From assembly GCA_963555755.3 (NCBI GenBank), contig OY820905.2:704001-768000 (forward strand): 64,000 bases of DNA, given 5' to 3'. Under the pieces are notes generated by a model. The model searched no databases and was not told where the DNA came from. It was given only the letters and a program-made list of their open reading frames with translations. Shown in pieces: positions 49,174-64,000 of the stretch (position 1 is its first letter; each line of letters starts with the position of its first letter). A program made the translations under genes and the position numbers. The stretch is from Nitrospirales bacterium. GTDB taxonomy: Bacteria; Nitrospirota; Nitrospiria; Nitrospirales; UBA8639.

Positions 49174-51609
49174 CTAACGCAGCTCAACAATCGTCACCCC
49201 ATCCCCACCCTCTCCCTGCATACCCGGTCGATACGACTCGACATAAGGGGAATGTGATAAATATTGTCGTGTCGCAATTTTCAGTTTGCCCGTTCCATGG
49301 CCATGAATGACATGCAGCGATTTGGCAACCGTGAGCGCAGCTTCATCGAGACGTGAGGCCAGACATTCCAGAGCCTCTTCCACGGTTTGCCCACGAACGT
49401 CAATCGTCAACAACCCAGAAGGTGATGGGGACGTGCGATTCTGTTCGGCAAATCCTTTTCCTGTTTTTTTATTGGGAGAAGCATGAGTGGCCGACAAAGA
49501 ATTTGACGGTATATCGCCCCCTTGACTTCTCCCGATGAGAAGCTCAACGGCAACCGACAGCTCTGAATCCCCTACCTGAAGACGAACTCGCTTCTTTCCT
49601 TGAGGGTTTTCAAGCAACGTTCCAGATGTGCCTAAATGGGAGATTTCGACCAAGGCGCCGACCCCTAAGGAATCGAGAGGAATCGTCTGACTGTCATCTT
49701 GGGTATTTCGAATCAATTCCCCTTCAATAGCACTCACGCGTTGTTTGGCTTCTTTCGCTTTTACCAGAGACTTGTCCTGCTTCAAGGCATCAAGTGTTTG
49801 CCGGATTTCCGTTCGAGCCCGAGCGAGATCCTCTTTGAACTTCTTTTTGACTTTGCGCAATTCCTCACGCTCCGTCGTGCGGAGACGATCAACACGCTCT
49901 TGTATTTCGGCTGCAGCGCTCTCAGCCGTGTGTCGATGTGTTTCGGCATCTTCGAGTTCTTGACGAAGCCGATGGTGCATAGCCTGTAGGTCTGAAAAGA
50001 TATGATCCAATTGGCGGTCCTGTTGATGCACAATATTCGCCGCCTGTTTGAGAATGCCTGGATCCATGCCTAGGCGACCCGCAATATCCAACGCAGAAGA
50101 ACCTCCGGGCACTCCCTGAATAAGCCGATAGGTTGGCGTCAGAGTCGCCACATCAAACTCGAGGCTCGCATTGAGAAATCCAGGAGTCGAGAGAGCTAAC
50201 GTCTTCAAGGAATTGTAATGAGTCGTCACCACAACCTTAAAACCCAACTGAGCAAAGTGGATGAGCACCGCCTCGGCCAACGCCGCGCCCTCTGCAGGAT
50301 CGGTCGAACTGATCACTTCATCGAGTAACACTAAAATGGGACCGGAAGTACCTGAAGATCGAGAATGCCCGATGTCCAACAGTTCGACTATTTTGGTCAG
50401 GTGCGCGGAAAAGCTGGACAGATCCTTGGCCAAATCCTGAGTATCCCCAATATCCGCATACGTTTCCCCAAAAAACCCCATCTCCGATCCTTGACCACAG
50501 GGAAGATGCAGCCCGGCTCGAACCATGAGACTGTACAGACCGAGAACTTTCAGATTGACGGTTTTCCCACCCGTATTCGGACCGGAAATCACCAAAATAT
50601 TTTGATCTTTTTCAAAAAAGATGTCATTGGGAATCACGGTGCTGCGAGCAAGCAGCAATAAAGGATGCCGTGCCTTGGACAAACGAATATGCCCATCCTC
50701 CGATAGTTGCACAGGATGCGCCTGCAGACGTTGGCTCAAACGCGCCTTCGCCCCAATGCTGTCCAAAATCGTGAGCACCTTCAGATACTGTTGAATAGCC
50801 GGGATATGCTCAACAATCATCGAACTCAGTTCAGCAAGGATTCGATGAATTTCTCGAGCCACCGCCAGTTCCCCGACCTTGATACGATTATTGAGTTCAA
50901 TCAATTCCCGAGGCTCCAGAAAGACCGTTAAGCCGCTGGAAGACACATCGTGAACAATACCGTCCACTTGATGCTGCATATCAACCTTGATCGGGAGCAC
51001 ATACCGATTCTCTCGTTGGGCAAAGTAGGGTTCCTGCAAGGCGTCGCGATAAGACGACGAGGTCAACATGGATTCCAAGCGTTGCCGCATTCTCAACTTT
51101 AATCCCTGAGCTTCCTGAATCGCGTCATACAACGCGGAGGAGGCACGATCCAAAATCTCTCCCTCCGGGCTGATGCATTGATCAATGTCGGACCGCAGAG
51201 GAGAAAGATCATCAAGATGCTCAATATGGGCGAAGACATGCGGGGCAAGTTCCTTCTGCGCTTTGAGGCAGCGCTGCACACTGACAATGAGGGCCATAGC
51301 ATTGGCCATGCGCCGCAACTCTTGTGCATCCAACACCGCACCTTTTTCAGCACGAATAAGCGCACTCCCACTATCGTGAAACGTCAAAACCGGAAACGGA
51401 AGAGTCCCCTCGGACAGAGCAATCATTTCCGATGTCTCATGAATACAGCCCTGAGCAGAAGAACAACTTTCTGCCAACGGAATAGATCGACAGTAGTCCG
51501 CGCCAAGGGAGGAATGAGCTTGAGAGGCCAAAAGCTCAAGCAGTCTGGGCCACTCTAACGCCTGCTGTGTTTGTTGGAATAAGGTTTCGTGGGACATAAA
51601 AAGTGGCAA
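49174..51609 (-). CDS. mutS2: Endonuclease MutS2
   Basis: SGPNTGGKT, ADIGD, SSFSAH, VTTHY and an Smr domain (IHGHGTG). Confidence 0.95.
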   Translation of the reverse strand: MPLFMSHETLFQQTQQALEWPRLLELLASQAHSSLGADYCRSIPLAESCSSAQGCIHETSEMIALSEGTLPFPVLTFHDSGSALIRAEKGAVLDAQELRRMANAMALIVSVQRCLKAQKELAPHVFAHIEHLDDLSPLRSDIDQCISPEGEILDRASSALYDAIQEAQGLKLRMRQRLESMLTSSSYRDALQEPYFAQRENRYVLPIKVDMQHQVDGIVHDVSSSGLTVFLEPRELIELNNRIKVGELAVAREIHRILAELSSMIVEHIPAIQQYLKVLTILDSIGAKARLSQRLQAHPVQLSEDGHIRLSKARHPLLLLARSTVIPNDIFFEKDQNILVISGPNTGGKTVNLKVLGLYSLMVRAGLHLPCGQGSEMGFFGETYADIGDTQDLAKDLSSFSAHLTKIVELLDIGHSRSSGTSGPILVLLDEVISSTDPAEGAALAEAVLIHFAQLGFKVVVTTHYNSLKTLALSTPGFLNASLEFDVATLTPTYRLIQGVPGGSSALDIAGRLGMDPGILKQAANIVHQQDRQLDHIFSDLQAMHHRLRQELEDAETHRHTAESAAAEIQERVDRLRTTEREELRKVKKKFKEDLARARTEIRQTLDALKQDKSLVKAKEAKQRVSAIEGELIRNTQDDSQTIPLDSLGVGALVEISHLGTSGTLLENPQGKKRVRLQVGDSELSVAVELLIGRSQGGDIPSNSLSATHASPNKKTGKGFAEQNRTSPSPSGLLTIDVRGQTVEEALECLASRLDEAALTVAKSLHVIHGHGTGKLKIATRQYLSHSPYVESYRPGMQGEGGDGVTIVELR

Positions 51610-53391: not shown

Positions 53392-53409
53392 CCCCCGGGT
53401 GCCCAAACG

Positions 53410-55030
53410 ATGCCGGCGGCCCTTGGGACAGCGATTCCGTCAACGCGAGGTGGCGCGTGTCTCAAGCCTACTAGCCCCTCTCCAGCCAGTGACACTCCCG
53501 CTCCCTATGAACGCCGGCAGCCCGAAGAGACCACGCTCTACCAGGTCATCCAAGACCACCTCGACACCTTCCTGGCCCAAGTCGAACAGGAAACCGGGAC
53601 AGGTTTGCCCCAGTTTGTCAAAGATGAGTTCGAGGCATTTCTGGAAGGCGGCATCTGAGGGCTCGCGAAACAATACCTTCCCAGAATTCGCGCCCAGATT
53701 TGGGGCAGATTGAGTCGATCTGAGGGAGCAAAACCGCAGGCGTAGCAACGCCCACGTTGAGGATTTTGCGAGTGAAGATCGGCTCAAGATGGCCTGAAGC
53801 TGGGATGCGAAAATGGGAAGGTATTGTTTCGCGAGCCCTGAGCGCATGGGTTTCTGCGCCTGCGGTGTGGGGATTGCGCCCATGAAAAACTGGTGGCCTT
53901 CTCTTGTAAACGGCGAGGGTTTTGCCCGGCGTGTGGCGCCCGCCGCATGGCCGAGACTGCAGCCCATCTGGTTGAGCAGGTTATTCCTCACGTGCCGGTG
54001 CGCCAATGGGTGGTCTCGTTTCCCATCCCGCTGCGGCATCTGTTCGCCACCCAGCCGCACCTGCTTTCCCCGGTGTTGCAAGTCATTCACCGCGCCCTCT
54101 CGACCTTCGTGATCCACCAAGCCGGCTTGACCCATGCCCAGGCGCAAACCGGCGCGGTGCCCCTCATCCAACGCTTTGGCTCCGCCGCGAATCTCAATAT
54201 TCATCTCCATTGCCTCATGCTCGATGGCGTCTATCGCCTCACCGACGGGGTCCCCATCTTCCAGGCCATCCCGGCCCCCACCACCGAGCAACTGCAGACC
54301 GTCCTCACGCGGATCATCACACGGCTGCTGAAGGCCTTAACGCGCCACGGTGCGCTCACGGAGGAAGACACCGAGATTCCGTATCTGACCGACCCCGATG
54401 CCGATCCCGCCTTGGCGCCGCTGCAGGCGGCCGCCTGCACCTACCGCATTGCCCTTGGCCCCCGAGCCGGCCAAAAAGTGCTGCCGTGGAAAGACCCGTC
54501 GTTGCGCCTCGCGAGCCCAGACATGCCGCAATCCCAGGGGTGTGTCAGTGCGCAAGGGTTCAGTCTGCATGCGGACACATGGTGTGGTCCCCATCAGCGA
54601 CAAAAACTCGAACAGCGCTGTCGCGACATCACCCGTCCGGCCCTGGGCCATAAACGCCTGCGCCGTACACCAGCCGGCGAGGTCGTCCTCCAACTCAAAA
54701 CCCCGTACCGCGATGGCACCACCCATCTCGTGATGACCCCGCTGGAATTCCTGCAACGCCTGGCCGCCCTCGTCCCACGTCCCCGACTCCATCTCATTCG
54801 CTTCCATGGCGTGCTGGCGCCCAACGCGGCGCTACGCTCCCAGATCGTGCCCGGCGAGGCCGACCCGGCAACGGACACCGCCCATGAGGATGGCGATTCC
54901 CTCGCTCCTTCAACACGAGCCCACCTGAGTTGGGCGCAATTACTCAAACGCGTCTTCGCCATCGACCTCACCACCTGCCCGCAGTGCGGCGTGGCATTGA
55001 CGCTCCTGGCGGCTATCGAAGATCCCGCGG
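53410..55030 (+). pseudogene. IS91/ISCR-type rolling-circle transposase, copy 1, interrupted by a MITE
   Basis: FSCKRRGFCPAC, QRFGSAANLNIHLH (HUH), PRPRLHLIRFHGV. An oriIS-like remnant lies at 56116-56141. Confidence 0.88.
53659..53838. mobile_element. Hairpin MITE family B in IS91 copy 1 (same insertion in copy 2 at 58701-58880)
   Basis: IR GGGCTCGCGAAACAATACCTTCCC; TGA duplication. Confidence 0.88.
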
Positions 55031-55162
55031 GGTATTGTCAAGTTAAGTGAATTTGACCAAAAATTAGGCAATACACGAATTCATAACTCATTGATTATTC
55101 AGCATTCAGGTTCCTGCCCCGAGGTAGAAAATCAACCCACTTTGACTTAAGTTGACAATACC
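55031..55162. mobile_element. MITE with IS6-like ends
   Basis: GGTATTGTCAAGTTAAGT / ACTTAAGTTGACAATACC (1 mismatch). Confidence 0.7.
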
Positions 55163-56106: not shown

Positions 56107-56248
56107 CCCTTTTGTAAAGGCCTTTTAAAATTTCTATTCCCTCTCCTGACTGGCGAGGCACAATGACGGGTCTTTCCACGTCAGCTCTTTTTGTCCCGTT
56201 CGGGGTCCGAGCGCAATGCGGTAGGTGCAGGCCGCCGCAGGTCTTCTA

Positions 56249-56285
56249 TTGACAAAATTGTTATTTGTGGTCACAATGACTACAG
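56249..56285 (+). promoter_or_regulatory. TA promoter with palindromic operator
   Basis: TTGACA-17 nt-CACAAT overlapping the imperfect palindrome TGTGGTCACAATGACTACA. Confidence 0.55.
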
Positions 56286-56296
56286 GAGGAATTGCC

Positions 56297-56584
56297 ATGG
56301 ATAAAGTCGTTGGAGCAAGGGAATTAAAAACACGGTTGGGCAGTTACATTCAACAAGTCCGAAACGGAACGACGTTTGTCGTCACCGAACGAGGACAACC
56401 AGTGGCCGAGTTGCGCCCATTGACATTGAAGGGCACAAAAGAAGAAATTCGTTTGCGCGAATTAGTCGCCACTGGGAGGATTTCGCATGCCTCTTCTGAC
56501 TCGTTTCGACCCTTTAAACCTATTCGGATGAAAGGGAAACCGTTATCCAAGACCATTATTGAAGATCGAAAGGATCGACTGTGA
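56297..56584 (+). CDS. Phd/YefM-family antitoxin
   Basis: VGARELKTRL..Y...V..G...VVTERGQPVA; AGGAGG RBS. Confidence 0.88.
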   Translation: MDKVVGARELKTRLGSYIQQVRNGTTFVVTERGQPVAELRPLTLKGTKEEIRLRELVATGRISHASSDSFRPFKPIRMKGKPLSKTIIEDRKDRL

Positions 56585-57006
56585 CACGGTATTTCGACGC
56601 CAGCGCTCTGGCCAAACGATATGTACACGAAGCAGGCAGCCAACAGATGACACGGCTCTTGGCCCAAAGCCATCCTGCCACCAGTCGCTTCACAGAGGTT
56701 GAGGTAGCGTCCGCGTTGGCCAGACGCGCACGAGAAGGCTCGTTGACCTTACGAGAACGTGATCGTGCGCTCGCCGCATTGCAACAGGATATGGCAACAT
56801 TTTATGTTGTCGAAATGATTTCTGAAGTAACCGATCAAGCTGTGGCGATACTCACACGACATCGATTACGCGCTCCGGATGCCATCCAACTGGCCTCTAC
56901 CCTTTACTTACAGAAACACTTGCCAGACCAACTTGAACTGGTTGCATTCGATCAGCAACTCCTCGATATTGCGGATCGTGAAGGGATAAGAGTTTGGGAG
57001 GCGTGA
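56581..57006 (+). CDS. vapC: VapC PIN-domain toxin
   Basis: YFDASALAKRY..E.GS, EV.SAL, LRAPDAIQLAS, FD..L. Confidence 0.88.
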   Translation: MTRYFDASALAKRYVHEAGSQQMTRLLAQSHPATSRFTEVEVASALARRAREGSLTLRERDRALAALQQDMATFYVVEMISEVTDQAVAILTRHRLRAPDAIQLASTLYLQKHLPDQLELVAFDQQLLDIADREGIRVWEA

Positions 57007-57050
57007 TTTTCCTTAGAAAAATTAGAAGTGCTACTAACTAATGCGAAACG

Positions 57051-57507
57051 CTGAGTATCCCCGATATCCGCATACGTTTCCCCAAAAAACCCCATCTCCG
57101 ATCCTTGAGCACAGGGAAGGTGCAGCCCGGCTCGAACCATAAGGCTGTACAGACCGAGAACTTTCAGATTGACGGTTTTCCCACCCGTATTCGGACCGGA
57201 AATCACCAAAATATTTTGATCTTTTTCAAAAAAGATGTCATTGGGAATCACGGTGCTGCGAGCAAGCATCAATAAAGGGTGCCGTGCCTTGGACAAACGA
57301 ATATGCCCATCCTCCGATAGTTGCACAGGATGCGCCTGCAGACGTTGGCTCAAACGCGCCTTCGCCCCAATGCTGTCCAAAATCGTGAGCACCTTCAGAT
57401 ACTGTTGAATCGTCGGAATATGCTCAACAATCATCGAACTCAGCACAGCAAGGATTCGATGAATTTCTCGAGCCACCGCCAACTCCCCGACCTTGATACG
57501 ATTATTG
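57051..57507 (-). pseudogene. Internal mutS2 fragment, a duplicate of 50437-50893
   Basis: 457-bp colinear copy with about 14 substitutions counted by eye. Confidence 0.93.
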
Positions 57508-57595
57508 TAAAGGGGTCATAAAGGGGTCATAAAGGGGTCAAATCTTTGGTTGAGTAAAGGGGTCAAATCTTTGGTTGAGAGTTTCAGATGGAACG
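57508..57595 (+). repeat. Ladder of truncated copies of the HUH element left end (11, 11, 25 and 41 bp)
   Basis: Each unit starts TAAAGGGGTCA and is an exact prefix of the sequence starting at 57596. Confidence 0.93.
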
Positions 57596-58616
57596 TAAAG
57601 GGGTCAAATCTTTGGTTGAGAGTTTCAGATGGAACGAGGTAGACTCTCGGGATGGCACGACCTCTCCGCATAGAGTATCCGGGCGCGGTCTATCATGTGA
57701 TGAACCGCGGTCTGGCGCGGCAAGCCGTGTTCCGCGATCCCACCGATTATGAGACCTTTCTCCAGGTGTTGAGTGACACCCATGCGCTGTGGGGTGTCGA
57801 GGTGTTCGCTTATTGTCTGATGGGGAATCATTATCATCTTTGCCTCCGCACGCCAACCGCCAATTTAGGCCGCGTGATGCGCCATATAAATGGCCTCTAT
57901 ACGCAACGGTTTAATCGCGCGCATCGGCGAGATGGCCCCTTGTTTCGAGGGCGGTATAAAGCGATTGTCGTGGAAGCGGACGCGTATTTGGCTGACGTGA
58001 TCCGCTATATTCATCTCAATCCCGTACAGGCCAAGCTGGTTCAGACCCCGGAAGCCTACCGGTGGAGTAGCCATGCGCGGTATCTCACTCCCCGATCTGC
58101 CCCTCCCTGGCTGGGCGTTCGTGAAGTGTTGGCCAGTATTGGTCCACCCCGCGTCTTTCATGAGTTTGTGCTGTCGGGCAATGAGGACGCCTTGGAGGCC
58201 TTTTATGCCGCAGGTCGTCAAGTGCCGGTATTAGGCACGGAAGGGTTTGGGGCCTGGGTGCGGAAAAAGGTTCGGCGGCTCTCGGCGGAACATCCACGGT
58301 ATGAGCGAGTGAAGGTGCGGCCGTCGGTCCGGCAGGTGCTGCAGCGAGTCGCGACGGTTTTTCAGGTCAAGAGGGCGGCGTTACAGACCAGTCGGCGGGG
58401 GGAAACCAACGACGCGCGCAAGGTGGCGATGTATCTGGTGAAACGGCTCTGTGATCTGACGTTGCCCGAGACGGCCCGGGAGTTTGGCGTGACCAGTTAT
58501 GGGGCCGTCGGGTGGGCCTGTGCGCAGGTGCGGGCAAAACAAGATGCGGAGCCACGGTTCAAGAAGCGAGTGGAAGAGGTCGAGGCATTATTTAGTCAAC
58601 CAAAGATTTGACCCCT
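57596..58616 (+). mobile_element. Y1/RAYT-like HUH element with 21-bp terminal inverted repeats
   Basis: AGGGGTCAAATCTTTGGTTGA / TCAACCAAAGATTTGACCCCT. Confidence 0.85.
57652..58611 (+). CDS. Y1 (RAYT-like) HUH transposase with a DnaA-C-like HTH tail
   Basis: MARPLRI, YHVMNRG, LMGNHYHL, LFRGRYK, YIHLNP, RWSS, ARKVAMYL. Confidence 0.9.
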   Translation: MARPLRIEYPGAVYHVMNRGLARQAVFRDPTDYETFLQVLSDTHALWGVEVFAYCLMGNHYHLCLRTPTANLGRVMRHINGLYTQRFNRAHRRDGPLFRGRYKAIVVEADAYLADVIRYIHLNPVQAKLVQTPEAYRWSSHARYLTPRSAPPWLGVREVLASIGPPRVFHEFVLSGNEDALEAFYAAGRQVPVLGTEGFGAWVRKKVRRLSAEHPRYERVKVRPSVRQVLQRVATVFQVKRAALQTSRRGETNDARKVAMYLVKRLCDLTLPETAREFGVTSYGAVGWACAQVRAKQDAEPRFKKRVEEVEALFSQPKI

Positions 58617-58619
58617 ATT

Positions 58620-60405
58620 CAAGTCGAACAGGAAACGGGGTCGGGGCTGCCTCAGTTTGTCAAAGACGAGTTCGAGGCATTTCTGGAAGGCGGGATCTGA
58701 GGGCTCGCGAAACAATACCTTCCCAGAATTCGCGCCCAGATTTGGGGCAGATTGAGTCGATCTGAGGGAGCAAAACCGCAGGCGTCGCAACGCCCACGTT
58801 GAGGATTGTGCGAGTGAAGATCGGCTCAAGATGGCCTGAAGCTAGGATGCGAAAAGGGGAAGGTATTGTTTCGCGAGCCCTGAGCGCACGGGTTTCTGCG
58901 CCTGCGATGTGGGGACTGCGCCCATGAGAAGCTGGTGGCCTTCTCCTGTAAACGCCGCGGGTTTTGCCCGGGGCCTGTGGCGCCAGACGCATGGCCGAGA
59001 CTGCCGCCCATCTGGGGGAGCAGGTGATCCCTCACGTGCCCGTGCGCCAATGGGTGGTCTCGTGTCCTATCCCCTTGCGGCATCTGTTCGCGACCCAGCC
59101 GCAGCGGCGTTCCCCGGTGTTGCAGGTCATCCACCGCGCCCTCTCGACCTTCGTGATCCACCAAGCCGGCTTGACCCATGCCCAGGCCCAGACCGGCGCG
59201 GTGACCCTCATCCAACGCTTTGGCTCCGCCGCGAATCTCAACATTCATCTGCATTGCCTGATGCTCGATGGCGTCTATCATCTCACGGACGGGGTCCCGA
59301 TCTTCCAGGCCATCCCGGCCCCCACCACTGACCAGCTGCAGGCGTTACTCACGCGGATCATCACGCGCCTCCTAAAGGCCTTAACAGGCCACGGCGCACT
59401 CATGGCAGAAGACACCGAGATCCCATATCTGACCAACCCCGATGCCGATCCCGCCTTGGCCCCGCTGCAGGCAGCCGCCTGCACCTACCGCATTGCCCTT
59501 GGCCCCCGAGCGGGACAAAAAGTGCTGACATGGAAAGATCCGGCCGTGCGCCTGGCCAGTCAAGAGGCACCACAGCCAAAGGGCTGTGTGAGTGCCCAGG
59601 GATTTAGCCTGCATGCGGATACCTGGTGTGGACCTCATCAACGGCAGAAACTCGAACAGCTCTGTCGCGACACCACCCGTCCGGCCCTGGGCCATAAACG
59701 CCTGCGCCGCACCCCGGCCGGCGAGGTCGTGTTGCAACTCAAAACGCCCTACCGCGATGGCACCACCCATCTCGTGATGACCCCGCTGGAATTCCTCCAA
59801 CGCTTGGCCGCGCTCGTCCCGCGTCCCCGGCTGCATCTCATTCGCTTCCATGGGGTGCTGGCCCCCAACGCGGCGCTGCGGTCCCAAATCGTCCCCGGTG
59901 AGCCCGACCAGGTGCCGAACACCACCGAGGGGAACGACGATTCCCTCTCTGCCTCCACACGGGCTCGTATGAGCTGGGCCCAATGACTCAAACGCGTCTT
60001 CGCCATCGACCTCACCACCTGTCCACAATGCGGCGGGCCATTGACCATCCTCGCGGCGCTCGAAGATCCCACCGTGATCATCAAGATTCTGGGCCACCTG
60101 GGCCTACCCCGCCGCGCCCCACCACGCGCCCCAGCCCGCCTCGACGCATTCATGCAAACAGCCTAATCCCTCCCCGGATTCCGGTTCGGTACCCGAACCG
60201 ACACTCCCCCTTTGCCCGTTTCCACCCTACACGCCACGAGCAAGCAACAGATTTGGCATAATCCCTGGCAAAAGGGCCAGGAAGCCCCGACTCACCGGAT
60301 GCACTCCCGCCTTTCAGACGGCGAAGTGTGCGGATGGACCCCTCACCGCGTTCTTTGGTACGTTGCGGTCTAGTCAAAAAGGCCTTTTGAATTTCCTATT
60401 CCCCG
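58620..60405 (+). mobile_element. IS91/ISCR-type element, copy 2: 5'-truncated, frameshifted, MITE-containing
   Basis: Homologous to 53578 onward, with an internal stop at 59984-59986. Ends in oriIS-like AAAGGCCTTTTGAATTTCCTATTCC. Confidence 0.88.
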
Positions 60406-60711: not shown

Positions 60712-61211
60712 ATGTTGAATTCGAAAAAAATCGCCATCACGCTCCTGGCGCTTCTGGGATCTTTGCCGTTGCCGGGCCAGCCACGGCGACAGAGTTTGAT
60801 CTCAAGGTATACAACAAGACTCAGGAGAAGACTGACACGGACAAGGGGACGAAAATCATGCTGTCACTCTACGATTACAGTAAAAAGAATGGTCGCGGGG
60901 GCCTAATTAAAAGCAGGATCGTCGATCCGGGGAAAATGCAAAAATTCATTATAAGCACCTCAGACTGCGACAAGAGAAAGCACAAGGTATTCACGATCAA
61001 AAGAGCCGATTCTGACGGCAACGCCGGTCAACAGATCGCTAGTAGCATTATCATGATGAGGACCGGCAGCTGCAGGAGAGCCAATAAGACGTACGAAGAA
61101 TTCACGGACGTCCAAAATGACGCCTTCGGACTCCGGAAAGAAAATTTGAGCGGCGGCCAGTACCGCGTCAACGTCAGATGCTTGACTGCGGGTAGTTGCG
61201 AACAACAATGA
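60712..61211 (+). pseudogene. Secreted paralog unit 1 (1-bp deletion in the signal peptide)
   Basis: CTGGGATCTTT versus GTGGGGATCTTT in its sisters. The shifted frame joins ORF 60858-61211, which ends CLTAGSCEQQ. Confidence 0.85.
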
Positions 61212-61326
61212 TGGCATTCAGGAAGTTGAGCATGGTACATGGGGATTATTTGGGGCCAGGCCCAAGCCAGTAAGAAGCCTTACTCTTATCCGAAATAAAA
61301 AACTATGATTAATGGAGAACAAGAAT

Positions 61327-61860
61327 ATGTTGAATTCTAAAAAAATCGCCATCGCGTTGCTAGCCCTGGTGGGGATCTTTGTTGTTGCCGGGCCAGCTAC
61401 GGCGGATACGAATACGGTGTTTTCTCTCAAGGTGTTCAACAAGACTGAGAAGAAGGCTGACGCGGACAAGGGGACGAAAATCTTGCTATCACTCTACGAT
61501 TACAATAATAAAAAACGGGGCAGCCTTCAGGACCACAGGATCATCAACCCGGGGGAAATGACCAACATCGATTTTAAATTCTCCAGCTGCTACAAGACCA
61601 AGCACCGGGAGTTCGTGATCAATACAGTCGATAGCAACAACAAAGTCCTCCGTGAGATCGCTTACAGCAGGATCAGGATGCAGATCAAGGATGGTTGCTT
61701 TGCTAGCGAAGTAGAGTTCCAGGACTTCACAGATATCCCAGGTGACAACTTCAAGTTGACTAAGGACAGATCTAATGGTCTCAGGTTCAAAGTCTACGTC
61801 AAATGCGAGAGTGCAGGTAGTTGCGAACAACAAAAGGGGGACGGTTCTAACATAGAGTAG
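61327..61860 (+). CDS. Secreted paralog unit 2
   Basis: GGAG RBS, signal peptide MLNSKKIAIALLALVG..PATA, C-terminal CESAGSC. Confidence 0.88.
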   Translation: MLNSKKIAIALLALVGIFVVAGPATADTNTVFSLKVFNKTEKKADADKGTKILLSLYDYNNKKRGSLQDHRIINPGEMTNIDFKFSSCYKTKHREFVINTVDSNNKVLREIAYSRIRMQIKDGCFASEVEFQDFTDIPGDNFKLTKDRSNGLRFKVYVKCESAGSCEQQKGDGSNIE

Positions 61861-62053
61861 CCTCCTACGGGCCTGGGAAAATAGGGGAAGTAGCCTTTAC
61901 GGAGCAGGTAGCCTCGACAGGGTAGTCTTCTCCAGATTTCATCCAGGAAGTTAAGCATGGAACATGGGGATTGTTGGGTCCAGGCGCGAAGCGGGTGGCA
62001 ATGTTTACTCTAACCCAAAATAACAAACCATCAATAAACAGGAGAACAAAAAG

Positions 62054-62569
62054 ATGATAAATTCTAAAAAAATCGCCATCGCGTTGCTGGCCCTTGTAGG
62101 GATCTGTTTTGTTGCCGGGCCAGCCATGGCGAGTGAAACGTATTATCTCTATGTGTACAACAAAACTGATAATCGGATGAAACAATACAAAGGGACGAAA
62201 ATCAGCGTGTCAGTCTACCATGTCAAAAATAGTGTAAAGGGTTCCCTTAAGGCAACAAAGGAAATTCCAATAAAGGGAATTGCAACAGGAATAGGAACGT
62301 TCAAGTTTGGCTCCGGCGGTTGCACCGGAACCAAGCACCGGTTGTTTGAGATCAAAACAATCGACAAGGCCGGCATCGTCGGCCCTCTGATCGCTAGCAG
62401 CAGGCTCAGGATGAAGAACACGTCGTGCGTGACTGATCCCGAAATAGAGTTCCAGGGCTTCGTTGACGAATCAAATGACAACTTCAATATCACTAAAGAA
62501 AAAAGGTATAAAAACAAGTTCTACGTCTACGTCAACTGCAATGGTGCGGGTAATTGCGAAAGACAATGA
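62054..62569 (+). CDS. Secreted paralog unit 3
   Basis: Same signal peptide and motifs; CNGAGNC. Confidence 0.88.
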   Translation: MINSKKIAIALLALVGICFVAGPAMASETYYLYVYNKTDNRMKQYKGTKISVSVYHVKNSVKGSLKATKEIPIKGIATGIGTFKFGSGGCTGTKHRLFEIKTIDKAGIVGPLIASSRLRMKNTSCVTDPEIEFQGFVDESNDNFNITKEKRYKNKFYVYVNCNGAGNCERQ

Positions 62570-62740
62570 GGGTAAATTACGAACTCTACGGATCAGGAAA
62601 CGAGAGTAGGTGGCAGACAGCCTCGACAGGGCAGTTTTCTCTAGATTTCATTCAGTAAGTTGAGCATGGCACATGGGGCTGACAGGAATGTTCACTCTGC
62701 CCCGAAATAACAAACTAGCAATAAACGGGAGAACAAGAAG

Positions 62741-63247
62741 ATGATAAATTCGAAAAAAATCGCCATCGCGCTACTGGTGGCCCTGGTGGGGACCTTTGCT
62801 GTTGCCGCGCCAGCCATAGCTATGAAGTTTAAACTCTATGTGTACAACAATACTGGTGAGAAGGCGGACAAGGACGAAGGGACGAAAATCCAGGTGTCAA
62901 TCTACAAATACAGCAATGGCAAAATTGGCAGCCTTAAGGAAACCATGATAATTTCACCCAAGGTAAATGAAGCAACTGGAATAGGAAAGTTCATTTTTAA
63001 TACCGCGATCGGCAACACTCAGCACCGGAGGTACCTGATCAAAACAGTCGACAACGATGGCAAAATCGGCAAAGCGATCGGGAGTGGTAGGGTCATGATG
63101 AGGGTCAAAACCAGTTCTAGCAAATTAAAGCTCGAGGACATCGTGGACTTCAAGAATGACAATTTCACTACTACTACAAATATAAAGTTTAGAGACAGTA
63201 TCTATGTCTACGTCACGTGCAATAAAGCGGGCGTTTGCGAAGACTAA
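62741..63247 (+). CDS. Secreted paralog unit 4
   Basis: Same signal peptide and motifs; CNKAGVC. Confidence 0.88.
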   Translation: MINSKKIAIALLVALVGTFAVAAPAIAMKFKLYVYNNTGEKADKDEGTKIQVSIYKYSNGKIGSLKETMIISPKVNEATGIGKFIFNTAIGNTQHRRYLIKTVDNDGKIGKAIGSGRVMMRVKTSSSKLKLEDIVDFKNDNFTTTTNIKFRDSIYVYVTCNKAGVCED

Positions 63248-63446
63248 GGCAGTTGGTTCGGCCCCTGGAAATCCAGTTGAAATATTGACCGGGAAAAAAG
63301 GGCAACGCCCTTTACGGAGCAAATAGTCTCGACAGGGCAGTTTTCTCCAGATTTCATCCAGGAAGTTGAGCATGGCACATGGGGCTGACAGGAATGTTCA
63401 CTCTGCCCCGAAATAACAACCCATCAATAAACGGGAGAACAAGAAG

Positions 63447-63699
63447 ATGATGCATTCGAAAAAAATCGCCATCGCGCTCCTGGCCCTGGTGGGGATCTTT
63501 GCTGTTGCCGCGCCAGCCATGGCGTCAACACTTAAACTCAGGGTGTACAACAAAACTAATGAAGCGGTGGGCGATGACGGGACGAAAATCAAGGTGTGGG
63601 TCTTCAAATACGATAATGGCCGGCGCGACTTGCAGAAAAGTCAGATCGCCAAACCGGGAGAAAAGAGCAAATTCAAATTTAATTTCACCGACTGTTACA
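63447..63699 (+). pseudogene. Secreted paralog unit 5, truncated by IS256
   Basis: Homology stops after TDCY at the IS end. Confidence 0.85.
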
Positions 63700-64000
63700 G
63701 AGCTATTGTCAAATCTAGTGTCTGAAGCGTTACTCACGCGGCGACCGGGTCCGTGGTTGTCTGTTCGATTCCATCGATAAATTGAATGTCCGCAACGACT
63801 TTGGGCAACTCTCGGAATCCTCGCAAGCGCCTCCATGTTTTCTCTGCGCATTGACCTAACTTGAACATCCTGTGCAATATGCCATCTCGCGTGAGACATC
63901 CCTTTGTGCGGATCGTCCGATGCCGAATCGTTCCAAAGGTCGATTCTCGATGGGATTGGTGGTCCGGAGACTCGGCCAATGGGCAGCCGGAAACGTATAG
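63700..64000 (-). mobile_element. IS256-family element, right end and transposase C-terminus
   Basis: ESTFGTIRHRT..TKGC, AEKTWRRLRG...F.DG; end sequence GAGCTATTGTCAA. Confidence 0.8.

Follow-up and report, generated by a model that had tools for sequence, protein, structure and literature searches.

Ladders of one-sided tip copies at the ends of TIRtrons in a Nitrospirales genome and at homologous loci

Ends of TIRtrons, a known and named family of elements with a Y1 HUH transposase, carry ladders of partial tip copies stacked outside the full end. These widespread ladders are a real footprint that appears to be unpublished, and we infer its mechanism below. Such copies, here called rungs, were present at 91 of 311 ends and at none of 1000 random anchors. 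The focal element lies in a window of 64,000 nt of a Nitrospirales bacterium (contig OY820905.2, positions 704,001 to 768,000). Coordinates without a prefix are positions within this window, and C1 positions refer to this genome. The features of the element are as follows.

57043..57507, minus strand: left flank, a 465-nt partial mutS2 copy (96%), cut off exactly at the outer rung
57508..57518, plus strand: rung 1, exact 11-nt prefix of the left end
57519..57529, plus strand: rung 2, exact 11-nt prefix
57530..57554, plus strand: rung 3, exact 25-nt prefix with the whole terminal inverted repeat (TIR) inside, left-end allele
57555..57595, plus strand: rung 4, exact 41-nt prefix with the TIR and sequence unique to the focal element
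57596..57599, plus strand: left 4-nt head TAAA, outside GGGG; a constant head over differing flanks in sister miniature elements
57599..57619, plus strand: left 21-bp TIR, pairing perfectly with 58596-58616
57616..57645, plus strand: predicted promoter, with a -35-like TTGAGA within the TIR and a -10-like TAGACT 6 nt before the ATG
57652..58611, plus strand: 319-aa TIRYT gene, Y1 HUH core plus a DnaA domain IV-like helix-turn-helix (residues 227-293)
58596..58616, minus strand: right 21-bp TIR, overlapping the stop codon
58616..58619, minus strand: right 4-nt head AATA (read on the minus strand); rungs absent at this end
58620..59986, plus strand: right flank, an IS91/ISCR-like remnant, truncated precisely at the right head

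A first-pass annotation of the window had described four stacked prefixes of 11, 11, 25 and 41 nt, and each of them is indeed an exact prefix of the end at 57596. The 11-mer of the tip occurs in five copies, starting at 57508, 57519, 57530, 57555 and 57596. Shuffled sequences held a mean of 0.96 copies, and five or more were seen in 0 of 100 shuffles. The 25- and 41-nt rungs have an ambiguity of 1 nt because a G stands before the rung and again before the next start. Rung 4 ends ahead of the predicted -10 box. The 21-bp inverted repeat with the transposase stop codon, also described in that annotation, was found perfect over 21 bp, with the TGA at 58609-58611 inside the right repeat. Going by the left end, the right one probably extends 3 nt beyond the inverted repeat, to 58619. 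A stable hairpin was absent at both focal ends (z -0.55 to +0.93), and hairpin recognition as in IS608 or REP was rejected for these ends without a stable fold.

The 319-aa protein matched Pfam Y1_Tnp (E 8e-12) and, above the cut-off, Bac_DnaA_C (PF08299, E 8e-10). It scored 73.5 with the NCBIfam RAYT model NF047646, below the cut-off of 80, and had no match to Y2_Tnp in Pfam. Its core residues are H60-Y61-H62, Y119, N123 and W138-S139-S140. An alignment of 32 homologues shows no variation at H60-Y61-H62, Y119 and S139-S140 and almost none at N123 and W138. The predicted structure (pLDDT 88) matched the fold of TnpA-REP 4ER8 first, followed by ISDra2 TnpA and IS608 TnpA, and the C-terminal tail matches DnaA domain IV both by sequence and by fold. 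With the Y1_Tnp match, the invariant H60, Y61, H62 and Y119 and the perfect 21-bp repeat, the earlier description of an HUH Y1 element with true TIRs is borne out. According to its fit to the published description, from sequence and the modelled fold, we assign the protein to TIRYT/TIRtron, subclass 2.1.2. By analogy, it would cleave single strands via a 5'-phosphotyrosine.

A -10-like box ending 5-8 nt before the start codon was found in 31 of 42 homologues versus 53 of 960 control positions, and a Shine-Dalgarno-like site in only 2 of the 42. The focal transposase mRNA is likely to be leaderless, judging from the sequence upstream of its ATG. The same is likely for TIRYT mRNAs in general (homologues L001-L079 and the focal gene), with the -35 region inside the TIR, a position that would permit self-repression by TIRYT.

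TIRtrons and TIRYT were named in 2013 (Di Nocera et al., PMC3733652), and TIRYT is subclass 2.1.2 of TnpA-Y1 (Quentin et al. 2018, PMC6006769). A Y1 enzyme with TIRs had been put forward as a novelty; it is already known, because the focal protein fits that description, namely a Y1 HUH domain with a Bac_DnaA_C extension, TIRs with a GGGG motif, no REPs and dispersed TIR repeats. The published motif GGGG[AT][CG]A[CG] is given for some or most TIRs, not all (PMC3733652, PMC6006769). The focal TIR matches 7 of its 8 positions, the eighth being A rather than C or G, as in many homologues. The TIRtron/TIRYT passages covered speak of TIR 'dimers or clusters' and mention neither the one-sided nested prefixes nor the 4-nt heads, unrelated flanks and local clustering seen here. 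No description of a ladder was found in the literature text covered, although Fig. 9 of PMC3733652 and the supplements of PMC3733652 and PMC6006769 could show such copies. TIRYT biochemistry was likewise not found in that part of the literature. TIRYT is a large branch of RAYT-like HUH enzymes. According to the passages covered, subclass 2.1 is present in 14.9% of strains (PMC6006769), one RAYT group has a raised duplication rate (PMC5581495), and in vivo repeat amplification by RAYT-like enzymes is stated to be unresolved (PMC8266576).

REPtrons (TnpA-REP/RAYT with REP/BIME; Ton-Hoang 2012, PMC3333891; Corneloup 2021, PMC8266576) share the fold, 4ER8 being the top match, and are described as having low cut-site specificity (between C and T or between C and A) and a proposed nick-prime-rejoin amplification of BIMEs. 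In contrast, the focal ends lack a GTAG-tagged hairpin and do not fold, and G or A is preferred before the break. Flanking GTAG-tagged REP hairpins, as in REPtron/RAYT groups 2-3, were absent at both focal ends. REPtrons are also said, in the text covered, not to move as a unit, whereas one further TIR family of this genome has three whole copies of 99.4-99.6% identity. These copies occupy different flanks, indicating that TIRtrons move as units. IS200/IS605 TnpA, according to PMC6006769 and PMC3333891, shares the HUH-Y1 core, the absence of target duplication and a segment of about 4 nt beside the break that travels with the end. It differs in length (about 150 aa versus 319 aa in the focal protein) and in having subterminal hairpins instead of true TIRs; here the ends are symmetric and the flanks were non-contiguous in all cases tested. 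Membership of IS200/IS605 was rejected on the TIRs, the 319-aa length and the lack of subterminal hairpins. In IS91/ISCR elements displacement synthesis is primed by a nick at an end, and an end can join on its own; they have a Y2 enzyme and unlike ends (oriIS/terIS). The focal element differs from them in its Y1 enzyme and in two like ends that face each other, and IS91/ISCR membership was rejected on the inverted-repeat ends and the missing Y2_Tnp match.

Ladders are a trait of the family and recur in all three sets of ends. Rungs were found at 44 of 108 ends in this genome (113 innermost ends minus 5 occupied by an intron), at 25 of 98 ends at homologous loci and at 22 of 105 metagenomic ends. 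The homologue set comes from 79 loci, 52 of which have a TIR pair, with 6 ends dropped for short flank; the 25 ends were obtained with a looser parser, and a strict first parser gave 16 of 98. The metagenomic ends come from 126 loci, with 18 dropped for short flank and duplicates merged. Recurrence at homologous ends, which the first-pass annotation had made a check of its reading, is thereby supported. At the ends of seven other multicopy repeat families in the same genome, each family counted once, a tandem duplication was detected at 2 of 246 ends, and one of these two is itself a TIRYT ladder. Other GGGGTCA sites had a rung at 12 of 307, most of which look by eye like further TIR-family ends. 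Copies of the tip 9-mer at homologue ends numbered 34 outside and 0 inside.

Rungs had been called progressively longer, and no such rule was found: adjacent pairs went up in 20 cases and down in 14, with 14 ties (p=0.39), and 21 of 34 multi-rung ladders were non-decreasing. The spacing from rung to rung ranges from about 5 to about 410 nt. Counted from the motif start, matched lengths are most often 6-9 nt; others form a group at about 19-24 nt, and the tail reaches 52 and 405 nt. Locus-specific heads, alleles and flank bases are found in rungs, as is even coding DNA, with 41 nt at the focal element and matches of 52 and 405 nt at other places in the genome.

An unconditioned search near the 311 ends gave 105 tandem duplications, of which none started at -3 to -1 and one started inside the end. 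Rungs start 4 or more nt before GGGGTCA. In this genome the commonest starts are -4/-5; in homologues they extend to about -13, and the boundary is therefore one-sided and not fixed. The shared start of the focal rungs had been read as a fixed cleavage or strand-transfer site. A boundary that looks enzyme-set is supported by the empty interval from -3 to -1; the fixed position is not, since starts vary from -4 to about -13. At 32 rung-free ends the base before the head was G in 21 and A in 6, with G nearby at about 23%. The heads are A-rich, and within a subfamily the 4-nt head is constant despite different flanks, likewise in a related genome.

The reading that fits best, which we hold with moderate confidence, is that the ladder consists of local tandem duplications of the tip and that copying and resealing of a nicked end is the main source of rungs. 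Repeated abortive copying of the end had already been suggested in the first-pass annotation, and the one-sided rungs, the boundary at -4 and the local template agree with it. Cleavage by HUH enzymes produces a 5'-phosphotyrosine and a free 3'-OH (PMC3333891). In the proposed series of events the DnaA-type domain would bind the double-stranded TIR, and Tyr119 would nick the GGGG strand at least 4 nt outside the motif, usually following G or A, the enzyme remaining bound to the 5' end of the element. At the focal left end this nick would fall just 5' of the head at 57596..57599. The 3'-OH of the flank, which points into the element, would prime strand-displacement synthesis, and the new 3' end would attack the phosphotyrosine once about 5 to about 410 nt have been copied, with 10-13 and about 23-28 nt the commonest lengths. 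Replication would then fix flank, prefix and full end in the order that is seen, and a rung retaining the whole TIR could be nicked again. Extension followed by sealing to the enzyme-held end would yield a one-sided, locally templated product without a reciprocal. If the held end were joined to a distant 3' end instead, unrelated cut-off flanks on both sides would result.

The GGGG strand is modestly favoured as the putative cut strand because the preferred G or A lies 5' of the break there; related TnpA-REP enzymes have a specified base 5' of the cut (C before T or C before A, PMC8266576). The proposed copying and resealing is close to the nick-prime-rejoin model of BIME amplification drawn for TnpA-REP in Fig. 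7B of PMC3333891, with or without the second cut of that model. Counting against it are the non-fixed starts, the rungless right end of the focal element, the 220 of 311 ends that have no rung, and also the microhomology excess and the signs of joins from another copy that are set out below. The term telomere-like, also used earlier for the ladder, appears to hold for the likeness of pattern only, because a rung is local DNA that has been duplicated in tandem at an internal position.

Repeated insertion that involves no local synthesis is the less likely main source, and part of the data speaks for it. Here the enzyme would cut inside a resident TIR, on the sister chromatid or in a nearby copy, and join a fresh full end to it, leaving the rung as the stump of the earlier end. 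Strand transfer between two cut sites by TnpA-REP is described in vitro (PMC3333891). Ends joined into other ends and into the interiors of sister miniature elements were found at C1:1568764, 2226344 and 789118 and at locus L005, and the miniature elements are locally clustered (15 of 19 have another one no more than 10 kb away, versus 1.4 expected). At C1:4104646 and C1:2167759 a G at -5 of the inner junction is supplied by neither the outermost flank nor the template, which repeated insertion accounts for, and outer copies differ from the inner end at the left end of L005 and at C1:1568764. Taken together, the unsupplied G and the differing outer copies point to joins from another copy. However, reciprocal exchange predicts 5'-truncated ends about as frequent as rungs, and clean ends of this kind are nearly absent. 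The outer motif was missing at only 3 of 76 inner-TIR sites, and none of the three (an internal change, a join to another end and possibly a chance match) is clearly such a product. The locus-specific flank bases in rungs exclude a distant donor but could be provided by a sister chromatid. In some places a fresh end probably is joined into a resident end that has been cut, because ends joined into ends and junction bases missing from the local template are both observed.

Host replication slippage at the G-run or the A-rich tip, independent of the transposase, is improbable. Microhomology was 0-2 nt at 69 of 80 innermost junctions and absent at 28 of them, which is little for recombination by homology. 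It does exceed a random-breakpoint null (0 nt in 35% versus 54% expected, p=0.0003), which means that pairing or a shared preference for certain bases contributes to some extent, and this mild excess would suit slippage, as would the A-rich heads. The junctions without microhomology, the sharp inner boundary at -4, and the low counts at other repeat ends and at other GGGGTCA sites argue against it. That assembly produced the focal ladder can be practically discounted: no single contig or long read spans the full ladder, but read-derived contigs of four public runs (from 2 studies, one run possibly being the source sample) extend across 57452-57583 and 57566-57624 with zero differences, overlapping contigs thus cover every rung junction, and ladders recur in independent genomes and metagenomes. 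No ladder-length variants were listed among the contigs of the four runs, and contigs drop rare variants.

The flanks of the focal element bear no relation to one another, and no target duplication was found there. The mutS2 fragment on the left sits 6.6 kb away from the intact gene (49174-51609), of which it repeats 50429-50893. A target-site duplication or a clean empty site was rejected for the seven two-ended elements whose uninterrupted paralogue or orthologue could be read (the focal element and C1:88390, 686886/687373, 2226344, 4096400, 4100383 and 4362716): on inspection by eye, the continuation matched the other flank in none of the 7. Among 41 Microbulbifer genomes searched, no usable empty site turned up. 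Non-contiguous flanks mean either that the ends join separately or that later end-adjacent deletions rewrote the flanks.

The focal TIR has 80 sites in the genome with up to 2 mismatches, among them 19 two-ended miniature elements of about 110-150 bp, and at least three further TIR families are present. A wider reading, which we offer tentatively and rate somewhat below even, is that TIRtrons form a separate class of transposons. A Y1 nickase would be guided by a DnaA-type domain that binds double strands, two rolling-circle-like origins would face each other, and ends would fire and join singly. Aborted rounds would give ladders; completed or misdirected rounds would give local moves in which neighbouring genes are cut off and gene fragments shuffled without target duplication. 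If so, ladders would be an in-genome record of the cut sites of the enzyme. They predict which strand is cut, in what window (at least 4 nt outside GGGG, following G or A) and how the product is built, and the mechanism is therefore directly testable by a cleavage assay with short oligonucleotides. If that mechanism is true, it would lend in-genome support to the nick-prime-rejoin model of BIMEs, and TIRtrons would be local genome shufflers.

Locus L080 (G000:C1:87500-97500) has four miniature elements, near-identical and all within 8.3 kb, with cut-off gene fragments between them. The fragments are an NmrA-like piece (our own reading) and a duplicated piece of a neighbouring gene, a case of local shuffling. 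At G000:C1:2174385-2174650 there is a second-order ladder, in which a block of rungs is apparently duplicated together with a 55-nt prefix.

A group II intron family (Rfam RF02003, RF02005, RF00029) resides in TIRtron ends, for example at G000:C1 687542, 240691, 2166639 and 2226039 (L081, L086). GGTCA follows one intron boundary in 12 of 12 copies, and GG precedes the other in 17 of 19. From these boundaries it looks as if the intron homes into TIRtron ends between GG and GGTCA, which would disable them.

DNA resembling a different part of mutS2 adjoins another TIRtron end at C1:490027. Two broken IS91/ISCR-like elements (53399-55050 and 58620-59986) flank the focal region, and TIR ends are joined into IS91/ISCR-like elements both here and at C1:4362716. 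A Phd/YefM and PIN-domain toxin-antitoxin pair lies beside the left flank at 56225-57006. Several tandem paralogous ORFs of 90-180 aa occupy 60858-63725, most of them with near-identical N-termini resembling signal peptides.
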